Positions 527-64,000 of a stretch of 64,000 bases of DNA are shown one piece after another. Below the pieces are notes generated by a model. The model saw nothing but the letters and a program-made list of their open reading frames with translations, had not been told where the DNA came from and did not search any database. Origin of the DNA: Neophaeotheca triangularis (Eukaryota); contig BAAIJX010000003.1 in NCBI GenBank assembly GCA_054600435.1, positions 744,001 through 808,000 of the forward strand, in the 5' to 3' direction. Numbering within the stretch: position 1 is the first letter of the stretch; each line of letters opens with the position of its first letter. Both the position numbers and the translations under genes were made by a program.

Positions 527-984
527 AATGTTTGAGAAAAGGTCGTGGGTGGAGGGGGGTTAAGGGTTCAAGGATAGGATGCAAAGTGCCTTTTCGGTAT
601 GATAATGACTTTTCCGTAATGTGTAGACTACGAGGCGCTATTGATAGGACTTTGGCACAGGTCCCGCTGAGCTCGTATCTTGCTCATATCTCTTGGAGCT
701 GCCGTTAGGTGGTTCACTTGTGATTGTCGGTTGTGGAAGTCTTTTCATGATCCTCCGACAATAGGCGAAGATTCCACTGCCCAGGCAACCCGCAGATAAA
801 GGAGCACCCTTGGATCTGCATCAAATATTACGTTCAACGCAGCCAAAAGGGCTCCAAATCGCGGTTATATATATGTATAGTACTATCTGTCGGAATGCAG
901 GAGCCCAAACCCTGGACCTAACCGCTCAAAGATCTCTTCTCCCAACTCACCTCCTCTCAATTCCCTCAGAACAAAAAGCTAAAC

Positions 985-1794
985 TCACCGATCATCCCTT
1001 TCCGCCCAACCCCTACAAGCCTCAAAATGCGATTCAAAAACACCCCCCTCCATCCCCTCGACCCTCTCCCACAAATCCCGCTCCCCCAAAACCCTCAGAA
1101 AAACCCACAGTCCCATAACCACAAAATCCGCATAACAAACCTCCTTACCCAACGCATAAGGGCCCTCCGGCCTCTCCCTCAACAAACGGCCCAACATCTC
1201 AAAACCCGCTCCGGCCCCATCCCAAGCCCCCTCGCCCCCTTGCGTCCGCTCAAATTCCGCCAAAGGCATCCCGAACCGCTGCTCCCTCGTGCGATGGAAG
1301 TACTCGGCGCTGCGCTCGGGTAAGATGCCGGGGACGCGGGGCATAAGCACGGGGCCAAGGGATTTCAGCACTTCGGCCACGGCTTCCTGGGCGCGATCGA
1401 CGGCCGGGGAGTCTAGGTGGAGGGAGGGCAAGGGTTGGAGTTTTTCCAGCTCGTCGGCGATGAGGCGCGAGTCCATGACGAATTTGCCCGAGGGGGTGCG
1501 GATGGCGGGGCTGGAGTAGGAGAAGTTGGGGTTGATGGTGGGGGAGTTGGCGGGGATTCCGAGGGCTTTGAAGCGCGGCTCGAGGTCCGGGTATTCGGTC
1601 CAGTCGGTGTGGTAGGGGATTTGCTTGTAGTTGAGGGCGAGGCGGGCTGTGGAGGAAGAGGGTGAGTTATTGGGGGGTTTGGGGAGTCGGGTGGTGGTGT
1701 TTTAGGACTCACTCTTCCATGGGTTTAGACTCCAGCAGGTGGTTTTGCCGTTGATGGAGCTGGGGAGGTCATAGAATGTTACTTCGTTCGACAT
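985..1794 (-). CDS. Glutathione S-transferase-like protein (fungal GST N-terminal domain), 2 exons
   Basis: ATG 1794, MSNEVTFYDLPS...CWSLNPWK. Intron 1647..1712 (GTGAG...CAG) joins to TRLALNYKQIPYHTDWTEYPDL...YSSPAI...DSRLIA...YFHRTRE...YADF, typical fungal GST motifs. Confidence 0.85.
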
Positions 1795-2161
1795 GATGGC
1801 GATTTTGGTGGGTCGGTCGTTGTTCGGTTGTTTGCGTGGAAGAGCAGGAAATGGTAGGTGTCTGTCGCGGTGAGGTTGATCGTTTATATACCTTCACTAC
1901 CTACAGCCATCAGATTTCCACTTCGTCATGTGGGGCATCTGACGGTGGAGGTACCCAGGTAGTGGGGCCGGACAAATGTCACCTTTGTAAGCATACTCAC
2001 CTACCGTAAGAAGAGAAAGGCTGCAGATCATCACTTGTCGTACTCCTTGATTAATCGTATCTAGGTCACACGTGGGTATCATGCCGAGCGCCATTCATGA
2101 ACACTTTCCACCCTCGCACAGCACAGGCGCCTCAGCACAGAAAAACAGAGTCGGGCAGCAT

Positions 2162-5100
2162 CTACGCAGCAGCGGCAACGACGTTCGACCCCATGGCCTG
2201 CCTTTTAGCCAACAAGCTCTGCCTGCCCCTACTCTTTGCGGACTTTGCCACGCTCTTGAAACCCTTACCACCCGCCGCCTCCTCTTGATGGCCTTCCATC
2301 TCCATCTCCCTAAAAACACCCACAGCCCCCGTGCCCAGCCCCACGCTCTGACCCATGATGATACACTCACTAACACCGGAGATATCATCCCTCTTCCTCG
2401 CCACAGCCGCGTCGAAAAGATGATCGGGAGTCTTCTCGAAACTCGCCAACTGCAACACGCTATCTCTCATCTTGGCCAGACCGAAACGCGTAATTCCCAG
2501 CACTTCACCCTTGTACGTCATGACGTCGGCCAGGAGCTGCATGTGACGCGGATCGATGTCCATACCGCCCATGACGGTGGAGATTTCCTTTATGATGGTT
2601 GAGCGCGCGGCTTCGATACCGAGAACGTCTTTCATCTCGATGACGCTGTTGGTAGAAGTGTGGATGCCGTCGATACCGTCGGTGGTCATGCACTGCTTGA
2701 GACCGTACCCTTCGACCAGCACGTCGATGCGTTCTTTGCCGTTGGCGTCTTTCTTCTCGTCCTTTTTCATGATAGCGCGGTAGGCATCTGGGTAGCCGCG
2801 GACGACAATGTCGGGTAGGCGCCGCTTGATGCTCTGCATGGCCATGAAGAGCTCTTGGTCAGCGGGGGCTTCGATGCTGCCTGCGCGCGCGAGTCGTGAG
2901 CGGCCTTTGCTGTCCAATTTCCCAATGTTGTCGATGGTGACACGAATGTGTGCGCGGCCGTGCTGGATGACGGTGCCGCCCATGGCTTTGAAACCTTTGG
3001 AGCGCTCGATAGCGTTGACGACGTCGTGGACGCCGATCCGGATGCCCATGGCGTTGGCGGCCGCAAAGTCGAAGCGCATGTTGATGTAGTTGTCGTGTAC
3101 GTAGTAAACGTCCTCGATGTGGGTGACAAGGTCGCGGACGTAGGTTTTTTGAACGAGAGACTTGGCGATCAGAGCAGCAGTCTCTTCGTACGGCGATTCG
3201 AGCGTGCAGGTGATGATAGGCGTACTGATATTTCTGCTTGCGTTGATGATTTCCTTGATACGCGGTACACCACCGGTAATAGACATACCAGCAACACCAG
3301 CAAAATGGAAAGTCTTCAGCGTCATCTGGGTACCAGGCTCACCGATAGACTGAGCGCCGACAGCACCGACAGCGTGACCGGCTTCCGTCTTTGACTTCTC
3401 GTACTTGCGCAGGCAAAGCACAATGAACACATCCAATGCAGTTCGGGAGATCTTGATCAGATTGTTCTTGTTGCCAGGGTATGCCGTCTGCGCGTTGGTG
3501 ATACGGTTGACCTTGGTATTGACGAAAGCCTGGATTGTATCCATGAACTCTCTTCCGCTTTCCAACTGGTCGACTGCTTTACCTTCGGGATCGAGGTAGT
3601 CTATCCGCCTGCCTTCGTCGTCATCACGCTGCAGCTTGTCACGTTCCTTGTTGAGTTCGTGGGAGACGATCTCGTTGATCTCCTCAGGTAGCAACGCCGG
3701 CTCTTCATTGTTCCAGGTGATGGCAATGGCGTGCGTGAAGGTACGTTCAAAGTTGACTGGTTTTGCGCTCCCTTCCATGTCCACTGGATCAAGTCCATCA
3801 TCACCGAACCTCATTTGCACAACAGTGCTGGCGGAGTTGCGGACTGTACCATCGTACTGAGCACTCAAATCCTCCAAACTCTTCATCAGTCGGCGAGACA
3901 TGTATCCGGTTTCGGCCGTCTTGACAGCAGTATCGACCAAACCTTCACGCCCAGACATGGCGTGCATGATGAATTCCGTTGGGTTCAAGCCGCTGAAGAA
4001 AGAGTTGAAGACGAAACCCTTTGAAGGCGGGTCTCGACTGCCCTTCGGGAAGTGAGGAAGCGAGCGGTCTTGAAAGCCATCGGCGACACGCGATCCTCCA
4101 ATAATTTGCTGACCGACAGCAGCCACCATCTGAGAAACGTTGATCAGGGAGCCCTTGGAACCGCACATTGCCATCGTGACCGGAGCGTTGTATTTTGACA
4201 ATTCGGCAAAACATGCGTCACCACACTCCTGTCTGACCTTGGATAAGATACCAGAGATCTGGTTCTCCATGGTCCCCTCTTCATCGCATCCGGGATCGCG
4301 CTTCAGCTCGCCGTTCTGATATCTCTTGATAATCGCAAACACCTTGTCGTATGCAGTCTTGACAAGAGCACTCTTCTTCTGGTTCAGCTTCTCACTTGGG
4401 TAGACATCGTTGATGCCGATAGAGAAGCCCTGCTCCGAGAGCCACCTGGCGGAAAGCTTGGCCAGCCTGTTCATGGCAGCGACGGCATAGCTGGGGCCAA
4501 AATCACGCATGATGACATAGAAGACAGAGTCCTTTTTGCCGTCACCGATGATAGCCTTGTCCATGACACCACACATGACCTCACTGTTTCGCACCACCAG
4601 ATATGAGTCGTCGGGGGCCATGTCAGGGATCGAACCGTCTGTAGGGGCTTTGTACTGCTTGCACTTGCCGTCCAAGTTCACGTTGACCGGATAATCCGGG
4701 TGCGGCTTCATGAGCATGCCCCAGACTTGTTTGCCAGTCCAAAGGGCTTGTGGCTTCCAGATCGCTGGCGGAGGAATCTGAAGCGGGTACCTTGTACCGC
4801 TATCGGGATCCACCACCTCCAGGCCGTTGAACATGAAGCTGACGATGTGCGTGAACTGCCTCCTGTTGAAGAATCTGTCCTTCTTGCTGACCAAATAGGC
4901 TCCCGTGATAAAATCCTGGATGGCTGCGATAATGGGCGTACCGTTCTTTGGCGTAGCCAGGTTGTGCATGACACCCATGAGCTCGATGGCTTCAGTACGT
5001 GCTTCTTCCGTCTGTGGCACGTGCAAGTTCATTTCGTCGCCGTCGAAATCAGCGTTGTAAGGATTGCAAACACATTCGTTGAGTCTGAAAGTTCGCCAGG

Positions 5101-59921: not shown

Positions 59922-60816
59922 CTAGATCTGGGTGTATCTCAAGTATGGCCTAACCTCTTGCACATTGCCAAACTTCTTCCTCGCGTCCTCGGTTTTGACG
60001 CTCGGTGGGACGATAACATCGTCACCGACCTGCCAGTCGATCGGAGTGGTAACGCTGTAGTATCGTGTTAGCAAGACTTCTCTCACCCGTATCGACAGTG
60101 CATACGTACCCCTTCTTGTCGCCAGTCTGCAGGCTGTCAATGACTCTAAGCACCTCGCTGGTGTTACGACCGGTGCTCGCGGGATACATCATAGTCAAGC
60201 GGATCTTTTTCGATGGGTCGATGATGAAGACGGAACGAATGGTGAAGGCAATGCCCTTTTCGCTAATGTTGGTCATGTCTTGGGCGTCGAGCATGTCGTA
60301 GAGGAAAGCGACATTGCGGTCGGCGTCAGCGATGATGGGGAATTGCAAGTTGGTGTTGCCAATGTCGTTAATGTCCTTGATCCAAGAGTCGTGGGAGGAG
60401 AGGTCGTTGGCAGACTATTGGGCGTGTTAGCTGCTGTACGGGCAGAATTGACCATGTCGGCTGATCCCTACCAATCCAATCATCTTGACGCCTCGCTTCT
60501 CGAACTCATCCTTCATCTTTGCGAATGCACCCAGCTCGGTTGTGCACACTGGCGTGAAGTCTGCAGGGTGGGAGAAGAGGATTCCCCAGCTGTTGCCGAG
60601 CCATGAATGGAAGTCGATGTCGCCGTGAGTTGTTTGCGCATTGAAGTTGGGGGCAACGGAGCCCAGTCGGAGCCTGGGTTGCTCTTGCTGGCTAGGTGTG
60701 GCGAGGTATCGACGGAAGATGGGAGAGGCTTGTCTCTGGGCGAACGAGGGAGTGTTCGCGATGCGCGTGGTGCGAGTGGCGTTGCGCAATGCGCTGCGAG
60801 CGAAGATGGCGGACAT
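59922..60816 (-). CDS. PRX1: Mitochondrial 1-Cys peroxiredoxin, 3 exons
   Basis: Presequence MSAIFARSALRNATR; FSHPADFTPVCTTE; RLTMMYPASTGRN. Introns 60415-60471 and 60055-60109; ends PYLRYTQI. Confidence 0.95.
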
Positions 60817-61120
60817 GGTTATATAGGTAGAAGGGCGATGCAAGTGGAACAGGTTGTTTGATGGGACAATTGAATGTTTCTTCGAAGAAGGCGTGAAAGA
60901 GTTCTGTTGAGTAGGTAAGATACTATGTAGGTCCAACGTGAATGCGCTGCGAGCTCGCATTCGGTATGGCGTCACACTGAACGATTCGCACGTAGAAGTA
61001 AATCCCAGCACGACGACGAACCCCTCATCACGCTTGATATCAACTTCCGAAGATCCGCCGTCGCAGGAACAAAACTAAGCTCCCCCGCTGTGGACCTTCC
61101 TCTCCTTCTCTTTCCCCTCC

Positions 61121-61263
61121 ATACTTACCTTGTCAGCCTGTGGGCGCTCACGCATGCCTTCCAGGTGCAAAGACTCTCTGCATTGCACAGCGCGGTAGAG
61201 TCTTCGCATGAGTCTCCTTCGGGGGCCTCACTGGCGGAATTTTTGATGGTTCAATGTCAATCA
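61121..61263 (+). ncRNA. U1: U1 spliceosomal snRNA or U1-like variant (3' end uncertain)
   Basis: 5' ATACTTACCT; closing helix GTCAG(61132)/CTGGC(61231); SL1 with 10-nt loop GCTCACGCAT; SL2 AAGACTCT/AGAGTCTT with U1A loop ATTGCAC (61182); SL3 with TTCG loop; Sm site AATTTTTG (61238). All elements are in U1 order and spacing. Confidence 0.88.
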
Positions 61264-62067
61264 CAACATACAGCCCCCTTTTCATCAGATGCTTCCTGTC
61301 GTTTGTGCGGCTGGTGCCTGGAGAAGAGGTAGAAGGTGGCTTTGGTTGCTAGGTACCTTCTGAGGTAGTGGACGTCTGCTATTCACTGGCAAAGTACCTC
61401 AAATGGCCTCTCCGTATTGGAATCGTGGCATATTCAAATACCAGCTTCGTTGAGCCTCTCCTGAGCACCTTCATGGATGGGGGCCTCCATCTTCGTTGCT
61501 TGGGGCACGCTTATTAACCAAACCGCCGTTGCTGTGAGTGGAACATCAATTCCTGATGTCTCTGAGAGACCGGTGCCTTTTCCACCACCATTTCGTCCAA
61601 TAGATGACAAGGGTTAGAGTTAGAGTGTCACGAGTGTGCTGGTCCACCACCTCCTGTTGAGGTGCACCGCGAAGGGGTCAAGCAAAAAGACACCAGCGTT
61701 ACGCTGCAATGGGGGACTTGAGCTTACCGACTACAGCCGCCTGGTAGCCATGAAGGATGGCAAGAGGGGGATGGACCTATAAAATCACTCACAAGTCTCC
61801 AACCCGAGACTCGCCAATTCTCTCGGAAGGTTCACACAGGGAATCCAACCCAGCCAAAGCATGGGCCGACCGATCTGTACAGTACGGACGACGGACGCAT
61901 ACGTCTCGAAACGGCTGGCGCAACGACATCAAAAGCCAATGTTCATGAGGGTATCCGCAATCTAAAAACAGTCCCAAACGCCCCGTACGTCCCATGGCCG
62001 CAGTCATGAAGAGCAGAGCAACTCCCTCCATACTGTCCAAAACATCAACCCAAGCAATCCACCCCAT

Positions 62068-64000
62068 TCACAACCCCTCACCCTCCCCAGGACCCCTCTC
62101 AGCCGCAGTCCGCCGAATCCTCTCCTCCTCCCGAACACAAGCCCCCAAAGCCCCAACCACAAACTCCCAACCCACCAGACTCCCATCCTTTGGCCCACCC
62201 CACCCACCCTGCCAAACAACCTCCCCCCCGTCCCGCCCAGCGGCACCATAAACCCCCCTCAACGCCCTCGCCATCCCATCCCCAAGAAACGCAATCTCCC
62301 CCCTCTCCATGGCCTCCACAACCCCACCCTCAACCAAAACCGCCATAAAACTCGCCACCACATACGCATGCTCTTCGGTAAAAGTATATCCCCCTTTTCC
62401 ATTCCGCACAGCCTGCTCCGTCCCCACGATGGCCGCGAGTTGCGGCGCCATGGGCGGCAGGGTCTGCCACGCTGTTAGCGGATTCGGGATGATGCTGTCG
62501 GGTTTTCCCGAAGTGCAGGATTTGAGCATGCGGTGGAGCGTTCGCATGTGCGCGAGGGTCCAGGGGTGGGTTTGAGAGAGGATGCCGTAGCGGGAGCGGA
62601 GGTGGGAGCGGAGGTTGGAGGGAAAGGGAAGGGGCGAGGGAGTTTGGGAGGGTTGGGATGAGGTGTTTGTGATGGCGGTCCAGAAAGTGCCGGAGAGCTT
62701 GGTCAGGAAGGTTGGGGCTGGAGGGGGGTTGGTTGTGGGGAGGCGGGGGGCTTTTTTTGAGACGAGGGTTATCGTTTGGGGTGATTTGGGGGACTCTTGA
62801 TAGGTGCTGGCGGTTGGCTGGGCTGATCCGAATAGCGGCGGGTGGTTTTTCTTCGGCAATAGCAGGGTTGAGTTGCCCTGAGAGTCGTGTCCTTGAGAGA
62901 GGGAGTCGTTGAACTTGACGCGAATTTTCTGTGGCGAATCAAGGTTGAGATGTTCCTCGTAGCTTCGCGAAGGTTCTTGCACAACCTCGTCGTCAGTTGT
63001 GACATAATCGCTTTCTCCCTCTGGCTGCTGATGCATAGCTTCTTCTTCATTGTCGACGTAGCTAGCCTCGCTTTGTCCAAGGTTCGTCGAAGTCTGCTCT
63101 TCAGCATACGAGAATTCAACTGTCGTGCTTCTAGGCCGCTTGACCGACGCCTGAGCTTCAGCAAGCAGTTGGCGCTGATCTGACGCCTTGCTTTGGAAGC
63201 TGTCGACCATATCTTGCGTCTCCTCGGCGGATTGGTCTAAAGCCTTGCTCATAGGGCTGTCTCGGACTTTACTGCTTTTGAGCAGACTCTTCCTAAGAGG
63301 ACTACTCATGGGCTTGTGCTTGGCCGGCGAGCTTCTCACTTTGCCTTCTGCAGCTTTCGTACGCAAGGCATTCGCTTGCTGCCTTTGCCTAAACTCAGCA
63401 GCTCTCGAGGAGCGATACACGACGGGCTTCCGAGGGCTGTTGCTGACCGGTTTCGAGGTAGTCGTGGCATCTATCCCACTGGTCTCGGGCCCAAGTAGTT
63501 CACTAAGGTTAGGGCCCGGATCTTTTCTAACAGGAGGACGTTCACGGCGCCGGTAAACTTGAGGCATGTTGCTTTGCCAAAACATGCCAGTGTCATCGCC
63601 ATCTGGGCTGGTGACGTTGTCGCTGCTATCAGAACCCGAACTGCCATCGGCCTCGTCTTGCTGCTCATCTGCTGCTTGCTCGTCTGCACCGGTGGCCTGA
63701 CTTTGAAGCTGCGTCGCTGCGCCATCTGGCTCCGTCAATTCTGATGACCCATCCTCCTCCACTTCTTTGCCAACCCCATCTACCGCCTGTTTCCTAACCT
63801 CATCATCCGTACTGGGAGGGGTCAAGACGCCACTGCTTCTGCGGCTCTCTCCTGTCTCCGAACCCGACGTCTTTCGGCGCTCATCATCCACTGCAGGGTG
63901 TGCTGGAGAGTCAGAGTACGCAAAGTCATTGCCAGAGCTCCGCCGCCACGTACGTGGAATCTTGGATCGAAGAGGCCGCAGAGGTTGATCGGCGAAAAGG
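62068..64000 (-). CDS. Hypothetical protein, 5'-truncated by window edge; disordered N-terminal part with folded-looking C-terminal domain
   Basis: The frame is open from the window end to TGA at 62068 (>640 codons). C-terminal HPWTLAHMRTLHRM...YVVASFM...WEFVVGALG. Confidence 0.75.
   Translation of the reverse strand, partial: LFADQPLRPLRSKIPRTWRRSSGNDFAYSDSPAHPAVDDERRKTSGSETGESRRSSGVLTPPSTDDEVRKQAVDGVGKEVEEDGSSELTEPDGAATQLQSQATGADEQAADEQQDEADGSSGSDSSDNVTSPDGDDTGMFWQSNMPQVYRRRERPPVRKDPGPNLSELLGPETSGIDATTTSKPVSNSPRKPVVYRSSRAAEFRQRQQANALRTKAAEGKVRSSPAKHKPMSSPLRKSLLKSSKVRDSPMSKALDQSAEETQDMVDSFQSKASDQRQLLAEAQASVKRPRSTTVEFSYAEEQTSTNLGQSEASYVDNEEEAMHQQPEGESDYVTTDDEVVQEPSRSYEEHLNLDSPQKIRVKFNDSLSQGHDSQGNSTLLLPKKNHPPLFGSAQPTASTYQESPKSPQTITLVSKKAPRLPTTNPPPAPTFLTKLSGTFWTAITNTSSQPSQTPSPLPFPSNLRSHLRSRYGILSQTHPWTLAHMRTLHRMLKSCTSGKPDSIIPNPLTAWQTLPPMAPQLAAIVGTEQAVRNGKGGYTFTEEHAYVVASFMAVLVEGGVVEAMERGEIAFLGDGMARALRGVYGAAGRDGGEVVWQGGWGGPKDGSLVGWEFVVGALGACVREEERIRRTAAERGPGEGEGL

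Follow-up and report, generated by a model that had tools for sequence, protein, structure and literature searches.

The window analysed here is a stretch of 64,000 nucleotides (nt) of Neophaeotheca triangularis DNA (assembly GCA_054600435.1, contig BAAIJX010000003.1, positions 744,001 to 808,000 of the forward strand), and positions given below are counted from its first letter. On its plus strand, from position 61121 onwards, lies a genuine gene for the U1 spliceosomal small nuclear RNA (snRNA), very likely of the ordinary short type of filamentous ascomycetes and typical of its lineage, in which the last hairpin of canonical U1, stem-loop IV (SL4), is missing. Shortly downstream, at 61278-61328, an RNA hairpin was found which is conserved, with covarying pairs, next to related U1 genes. 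This conserved and covarying hairpin just downstream of U1 is the new point of the analysis; no description of a conserved 3' hairpin, or of filamentous-fungal U1 without SL4, was found in open-licence PubMed Central papers and bioRxiv preprints.

The identity of the gene was examined with the U1 model of Rfam (RF00003). In a 601-nt stretch the model matched 61121-61258 on the plus strand over model positions 1-166, with 52.3 bits and an expectation value (E) of 3.4e-12; in the Rfam scan of the whole window the same match stood at E 3.6e-10, and no other match at E of 0.1 or below was obtained in the 64 kilobases (a mir-84 match at 61353-61409, with 12.8 bits and E 8, was dismissed as chance). 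The score lies below the RF00003 gathering score of 69.5, and a default-threshold Rfam search thus reports nothing at this place; the shortfall is due to the missing SL4. When 61121-61263 was folded for minimum free energy, a four-way junction of helix H with three stem-loops resulted. The 5' splice-site recognition sequence at 61121-61130, ATACTTACCT (RNA form AUACUUACCU), is the same as positions 1-10 of the Rfam consensus. The sequence and the Rfam alignment place the apical loop of stem-loop I (SL1), GCTCACGCAT (RNA form GCUCACGCAU), the predicted binding site of U1-70K, at 61146-61155, and the U1A-type loop of stem-loop II (SL2), CATTGCAC (also CAUUGCAC), which contains the required AUUGCAC, at 61181-61188. 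Stem-loop III, with a UUCG loop, was seen at 61209-61230 in the fold and has covarying pairs in the alignment of related genes described below. The Sm site, AATTTTTG at 61238-61245 or, with its closing G, AAUUUUUGA at 61238-61246, lies 3' of helix H, and the distance from the start of the gene to the Sm G is 125 nt. An earlier note, made from the letters of the window alone, had described a U1 cloverleaf with these parts (5' end, four-way junction, U1A loop, Sm site), and both the Rfam match and the fold bear it out.

The same note had seen no SL4 behind the Sm site, and this too held: where the Rfam model has 23 nt for SL4, the alignment put only 3 nt, and the 32 nt after the Sm G (44% GC) folded with only -4.5 kcal/mol. 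SL4 was taken as typical of the Rfam model and not as defining U1, the U1 of budding yeast and the 130-nt U1 of Aspergillus fumigatus being without it. For the two U1 RNAs of A. fumigatus, U1-1 and U1-2, a 132-nt complementary DNA and a 130-nt Northern band were reported (Jochl et al. 2008, PMC2377427). Position 132 of the present gene is 61252, and the paralogues seen in the DNA run of a second strain (X2) cease to be alike at 61249-61252. From this length and this point of divergence, the mature RNA is probably about 130 nt long and ends near 61252, a few nucleotides after the Sm site. The predicted mature U1 snRNA accordingly spans 61121-61252 (plus strand, about 132 nt), with a 5' end made firm by the Rfam match, the fold and the class alignment and a 3' end placed by the two observations just given; of the extent 61121-61263 first proposed, the gene stands, and the RNA end is probably to be drawn back. 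The AT-rich, unconserved spacer that follows (61253-61277, plus strand) diverges between paralogues and varies in length and sequence among relatives, and is probably trimmed from a precursor.

Related genes were collected by scanning metagenome contigs for three U1 motifs (the 5' end, the SL2 loop and the Sm site) with free spacers, the SL1 loop and the 3' flank being left unconstrained; the 5' word was required by the pattern, and its invariance among the loci is therefore by construction. At least 115 loci were obtained, and all class counts given in this text are counts among the loci listed. Two builds were recognised, 44 loci being of canonical type and 71 of short type. The canonical-type genes measured 129-143 nt up to the Sm G and had the start ...CCTGG, whereas the short-type genes measured 124-130 nt and had the start ...CCTTS, like the window. 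For the 32 nt after the Sm site, a fold of -10 kcal/mol or lower was obtained in 43 of 43 unique canonical-type rows against 0 of 64 unique short-type rows (the window included; L063 and L098, with too little flank, left out), the medians being -15.1 and -2.3 kcal/mol, respectively. The RF00003 threshold was missed by 13 of the 14 short-type loci tested, with 46.2-67.5 bits (L001, L003, L005, L010, L013, L025, L036, L039, L043, L069, L086, L089 and L096), L077 being the single one above it (70.9 bits); all six canonical-type loci tested scored at or above it, with 69.8-155.5 bits. The short-type loci are 61-76% identical to the window. When the window and 64 short-type genes were aligned, a four-way junction was recovered in which 36 of the 38 consensus pairs showed compensatory changes, and the window fitted into it. 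Compensatory changes on this scale argue that the short-type loci, the window's gene among them, are working genes under structural selection, as far as sequence comparison can tell.

Two further observations were made on the metagenome contigs. Open frames in the flanks of the loci run through the U1 gene itself and look non-coding, and they give no taxonomic placement. Three of the canonical-type contigs, which are probably non-fungal, are small-RNA gene clusters: U1 was accompanied by U4 and 5S in L006 (L006:668-808 and L006:1-74), by 5S in L002 (L002:870-933), and by U5 and a U2 fragment in L014 (L014:140-254 and L014:1-31).

The hairpin at 61278-61328 (plus strand), a candidate RNase III-type signal for processing and termination by analogy with Schizosaccharomyces pombe, begins 32 nt after the Sm G and thus lies 3' of the predicted mature end. 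It has two stems, a lower one of CUUUUC and GAGAAG and a variable upper one, together with a 1x1 mismatch of two purines and a small loop. The word of its 5' arm, TTTTCATCAG at 61279-61288, was met again as YTTTCATCAG on all three downstream flanks shown for the X2 paralogues. Two words that pair with each other, the T-rich CTTTTCAYYR and the GA-rich YTGRRGAAGAG, recur in the short-type loci at a distance of about 33 nt, which in the window is 40 nt. The spacer between the U1 body and the hairpin ranged from a few to about 40 nt across genes and differed even among paralogues. The 3' flank had also been considered as an intron, with the pyrimidine word ending in CAG as its 3' splice site; this was rejected, as the word lies only about 4 nt from the conserved body in one paralogue and pairs with the GA-rich arm downstream.

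Forty-two hairpins, that of the window included, were then aligned, giving 17 consensus pairs of which 12 carried compensatory changes. Paired cells amounted to 92.9%, compared with 76.5% in column shuffles (0 of 500 reached the observed value) and 53-58% when the partners were slid by 1-3 columns, and the covariation score was 0.598 against 0.268; since these seed hairpins had been filtered for pairing of the lower and middle stem, the pairing in those parts is inflated. In the upper stem, whose seven pairs were selected only indirectly through an energy cut-off, six showed compensatory changes. G-U pairs made up 171 of the 714 paired cells, one invariant U-G pair included, and would be A-C mismatches on the opposite strand; the structure therefore belongs to RNA of the U1 sense strand, and a palindrome at the DNA level was ruled out on the same count. 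Stems of 16-21 base pairs (bp; median 17) and loops of 3-6 nt were measured in the 42 hairpins, and the 1x1 mismatch was purine-purine in every one of them (AA 25, AG 10, GA 5, GG 2).

A covariance model of the hairpin (R1) found the window copy at 61278-61328 with 32 bits and E 7.9e-7, as its sole match in the window at E of 0.01 or below (another had E 0.57). At the same cut-off R1 matched 59 of the 71 short-type loci, namely 41 seed members, 6 duplicates of seed members and 12 independent loci; four more short-type loci matched weakly (E 0.012-0.17), and eight had no match, three of these with less than 70 nt of flank. None of the 44 canonical-type loci was matched. One short-type locus, L045, was seen to carry two such hairpins in tandem (L045:540-584 and L045:656-699), about 70 nt apart, the second of which (21.1 bits, E 0.002) could be a fail-safe processing site.

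The hairpin probably directs the formation of the U1 3' end. In Saccharomyces cerevisiae, the 3' ends of snRNAs form through a site for the RNase III Rnt1. An RNase III-type mechanism of processing and termination at the present hairpin, proposed by analogy, stands in our estimate at about an even chance. Transcription from 61121 would run through the 25-nt spacer into the hairpin, a nuclear RNase III orthologue of the Pac1/Rnt1 type would cut it, the cleavage would end transcription and open an entry for 3'-5' exonucleases, and these would shorten the 5' product as far as the Sm core. The closest model is Schizosaccharomyces pombe, in which Pac1 sits on snU1, snU2, snU4 and snU5, RNA polymerase II reads through without Pac1, and the hairpins predicted immediately behind the mature snRNAs have 23-32 nt stems and 3-5 nt loops; Pac1 needs a minimum of about 20 nt and tolerates bulges and wide sequence variation (Yague-Sanz et al. 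2021, PMC8421224).

Two features of the hairpins speak against such a cut. Their stems of 16-21 bp are shorter than the 23-32 nt of S. pombe and at the edge of the minimum of about 20 nt for Pac1. In addition, budding-yeast Rnt1 prefers A/U-G-N-N tetraloops, and terminal loops of that form were present in only 2 of the 42 hairpins. The hairpin may instead act without RNase III, either as a binding site whose lower stem and mismatch are recognised by a factor for termination or processing, or as a structure for stalling or pausing; we regard this as a tentative, less probable explanation than RNase III cleavage. It would account for the lower stem being kept beyond the need for pairing (a U-G pair in 42 of 42, a C-G pair in 42 of 42 and the purine-purine mismatch likewise in 42 of 42), a conservation left unexplained by RNase III because Pac1-type enzymes are said to be sequence-tolerant, and it sits well with stems that are short for Pac1. 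On the other hand, no candidate protein is in hand for it, and the sole experimental precedent at fungal snRNA 3' hairpins is RNase III, in the form of Pac1 and Rnt1.

The copies of U1 in the organism were studied with the contigs of the second-strain DNA run X2 (73% of sampled words), which were placed on 60700-61500 at 80% likeness or more. Twenty-nine contigs fell on the gene, 13 of them at 99% or above, 7 at 95-99%, 4 at 90-95% and 5 below 90%. At least three distinct upstream flanks (breaks at 61062, 61096 and 61119) and at least three distinct downstream flanks (breaks at 61249, 61250 and 61252) were distinguished, these being counts of the loose ends shown, with five further loose ends outside them. 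The summed contig depth over the gene (61105-61266) was 781-3,879 against about 107 in the flanks, that is 7-36 times higher, which is not a copy number. Several different flanks in the second strain mean that U1 is a multi-copy family in this fungus, and a survey of spliceosomal RNAs gives one or a few genes for each of them in fungi (PMC2396436). Variants among the X2 copies were located at 61139, 61163, 61165, 61168, 61170, 61199 and 61202. Two of them, 61139 (U>C) and 61163 (A>G), fall on bases that pair with each other in SL1 (positions 19 and 43 of the fold), which is consistent with a compensatory change between copies, the contigs being too short for linkage.

In their promoter regions, the majority of short-type loci show a TATA-like box, at about -35 to -50, as well as CT-rich sequence that reaches the start. 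A pyrimidine (CT)-rich tract of this kind, like that before ATACTTACCT in most related loci, occupies 61096-61120 (plus strand) in the window. Further upstream, at 61067-61087 (plus strand, about -54 to -34), a word was found to be nearly the same as the loose end before 61096 of two paralogue contigs; it probably carries the family's own upstream element and is a candidate promoter element, at the place that a TATA box occupies in most of the related genes. Elsewhere in the class, YTAGCG, often with CTTGGC, stood 20-30 nt upstream of the TATA box in one group of loci (e.g. L005, L010, L039, L074, L086 and L090) and GTGCACAGACC at the same distance in another (L013, L017, L028, L044, L048, L051 and L056); these words are candidate snRNA-specific promoter elements, and neither of them occurs in the promoter region of the window.

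Within a family of this kind, the copy in the window might be a silent or decaying member, with working U1 supplied from other loci. Apart from the multi-copy state itself, this idea can draw on the lack of a clean TATA box, on the minority letter that the window has at 61163, and on the lack of any RNA contig on the gene, which is not evidence of absence. We nevertheless hold it improbable: every class-conserved position is intact and all helices pair, the minority A at 61163 still pairs with the U at 61139, the full 3' hairpin is present with 32 bits, and the upstream word at 61067-61087 is common to paralogues. A single-copy X2 contig covering 61224-61473 moreover had no listed difference over 61224-61359, compared with about 8 differences in 60880-61105, a weak point on small numbers. 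Single-copy X2 contigs as a whole showed about 8 differences in the intergenic 60880-61105, 3 in 61360-61473 and none listed in 61224-61359 (Sm site, spacer and hairpin), which faintly suggests that the 3' flank of this locus is under constraint. That U1 snRNA is expressed from this particular copy is considered quite probable.

A less probable alternative still is that the hairpin is part of a mature U1 of about 210 nt, as a displaced SL4 on a floppy linker. Sequence and structure of the hairpin are indeed conserved, its place is always 3' of the Sm site, in the usual position of SL4, and the mature 3' end in this fungus has been placed by comparison. Against this, the U1 of A. fumigatus was found to be 130-132 nt by complementary DNA and Northern (PMC2377427), the spacer varies in length even among paralogues of one genome, and the tandem hairpins of L045 fit a fail-safe processing site better than a body of the RNA, so that we consider this reading quite unlikely and keep the hairpin as a putative signal outside the mature RNA.

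The SL1 loop was examined separately, since the earlier note had pointed out that 3 of its 10 positions differ and had raised, on intact stems, the idea of a specialised U1 variant. In the Rfam alignment the three differences were confirmed: compared with the consensus GAUCAaGAAG, the window departs at positions 2, 8 and 10. In 65 unique short-type genes (the window not counted), the letters kept were G1 in 65, U3 in 64, C4 in 65, A5 in 62 and A9 in 59, and the window loop has all five. The remaining positions varied within the class: position 2 was C in 37 of the 65 genes and A in the other 28; at position 8, 49 genes had A, 9 had G, 5 had C and 2 had U; at position 10, 28 genes had U and 25 had G, with C in 7 and A in 5. 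The three departures of the window from the human loop sit exactly at class-variable positions, and two of the letters it has there are frequent among the short-type genes. In the canonical-type genes, A at position 2 and G at position 10 were present in 43 of 44 unique rows, and the odd row, L015, turned out to be of the other type.

The human U1 small nuclear ribonucleoprotein allows these positions to be read against the protein. There, G28 is flipped out and rests on Tyr112, U30 is packed against Leu175, and the ribonucleoprotein-motif (RNP) phenylalanines provide the stacking surface for C31 and A32; loop 3 holds C33 and G34, A29 forms a pair with A36, and the part of A35 to G37 is confined to stacking (PMC4383343). 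The window loop keeps the equivalents of G28, U30, C31, A32, C33, G34 and A36 and changes only A29, A35 and G37; the SL1 core of G1, U3, C4, A5, C6, G7 and A9 is thus kept, and the loop is predicted to be a U1-70K site.

Among the copies that are at least 80% like the window, what was observed is a family of like genes rather than a canonical gene accompanied by a variant, and the X2 copies placed had no listed difference in 61140-61162, the stretch that bears the loop; a canonical-type U1 less than 80% like the window would escape this comparison, so that its absence is unproven, and this has to be held against the ordinary reading. The same side of the balance holds the C at loop position 8, which only 5 of the 65 genes share, and the exact ten-letter loop of the window, which is absent from the 65 related short-type genes, the nearest being L096 at one letter's distance. 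It also holds the lack of a clean TATA box in the window, and the circumstance that the metagenome loci are taken to be fungal from their likeness to the window. Finally, the transcript side gives the ordinary reading no help: run X3 (RNA or putative RNA) had no contig on 60700-61500, and runs X4 and X5 had one contig each, at 60700-60897 and 60700-60848 on the peroxiredoxin side, all of them uninformative on U1 expression.

In spite of these points, the specialised variant found no support. A U1 paralogue beside a canonical U1, with an altered U1-70K loop, no SL4 and perhaps a subset of introns of its own, can call on the three loop positions off the Rfam and human consensus with stems intact, on the rare C at position 8 and on the several U1 copies that make specialisation possible in principle, but it is made extremely unlikely by the lack of any listed variant in 61140-61162 among the 29 second-strain contigs, all at least 80% like the window, by a C at position 2 and a U at position 10 that are common in a class whose conserved loop positions are all kept, by the finding of an SL4 in 0 of 64 short-type genes, by the mere 130-132 nt of the experimentally seen A. 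fumigatus U1, and by the unaltered state of the nucleotides that human U1-70K contacts base by base. The fallback of the earlier note, that this is simply the normal U1 of the lineage, is the reading that the short-type class supports in its build, its loop range and its lack of SL4. As to the further proposal that such an ordinary U1 would be the only one and would share its loop and 3' end with relatives, the gene is not the only U1, several copies with other flanks being present in the second strain, and the 3' end without SL4 is indeed shared by the relatives. This is a housekeeping gene, and a changed loop and the lack of the final hairpin are the norm of the lineage.

Compared with canonical U1 (RF00003, human), the RNA of the window has in common the 5' splice-site guide, the four-way junction, the U1A loop of SL2 and the Sm site, and differs in having no SL4 and in the changed loop equivalents of A29, A35 and G37. 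The nearest described case is that of A. fumigatus, likewise a filamentous ascomycete with a short U1 that leaves no room for SL4, a likeness by length; more than one gene copy is present there as here, two genes in A. fumigatus and several more contigs in the present fungus. The paper states that the stem-loop arrangement matches Rfam, and the missing SL4 is not remarked on in the available part of it (PMC2377427). In S. pombe, a hairpin with a small loop is predicted shortly 3' of mature snU1, as in the window, where a processing role is proposed; S. pombe differs in keeping a short SL4 and in its stems of 23-32 nt, against no SL4 and 16-21 bp here, and, unlike the S. pombe hairpins, those described here have the sequence of the lower stem and the purine-purine mismatch conserved across many lineages. 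Among ascomycetes, the U1 of S. cerevisiae (SNR19) likewise has no clear homologue of the terminal SL4; with 568 nt and extra domains it is four times longer than the RNA of the window.

The absence of SL4 bears on the contact between U1 and U2. Human SL4 binds the UBL domain of SF3A1 and is required for splicing, S. pombe U1 retains a short SL4, and in budding yeast there is no clear SL4 and Prp21 is without a UBL domain (PMC4233244, PMC6795144). With no SL4 in the U1 of the window, a contact of the human SL4-SF3A1 type cannot exist in that form.

The neighbouring genes were also inspected. A peroxiredoxin gene on the minus strand (AhpC-TSA family, E 6e-15) lies about 300 bp from U1 in divergent orientation. 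On the other side, a long open frame at 62068-63999 (minus strand) runs past the window end and has no Pfam domain; its relatives are proteins of about 1,000 amino acids confined to Dothideomycetes, one of them named with a Zds1 C-terminal domain. For the frame of 607 amino acids at 62068-63891 (minus strand), the best named relatives, at 35-41% identity, were from Baudoinia, Friedmanniomyces, Elasticomyces, Teratosphaeria and Hortaea, that is from Teratosphaeriaceae and allied Dothideomycetes, and these relatives place the host as a filamentous ascomycete near Teratosphaeriaceae (Dothideomycetes).

For the biology of the lineage, the gene does not point to a variant spliceosome. Since the Rfam U1 model at its gathering threshold passes over this gene and 13 of the 14 related ones tested, U1 is probably under-annotated in filamentous fungi, and the hairpin is a possible marker for finding such genes as well as a concrete, mutable element for work on snRNA 3' end formation and termination in these organisms. 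A fungal group that apparently splices without the SL4 of U1, which is essential in human cells, would be a natural test case for the bridging of U1 and U2. Whether filamentous ascomycetes generally combine a minimal U1 without SL4, and hence without an SL4-SF3A1 bridge, with a lineage-wide and sequence-specific 3' signal hairpin is in our judgement evenly balanced; such a hairpin, with a lower stem of CUUUUC/GARGAAG, an obligatory purine-purine mismatch, a covarying upper stem and a loop of 3-6 nt, would be either a substrate of the RNase III orthologue or the recognition site of a dedicated factor.

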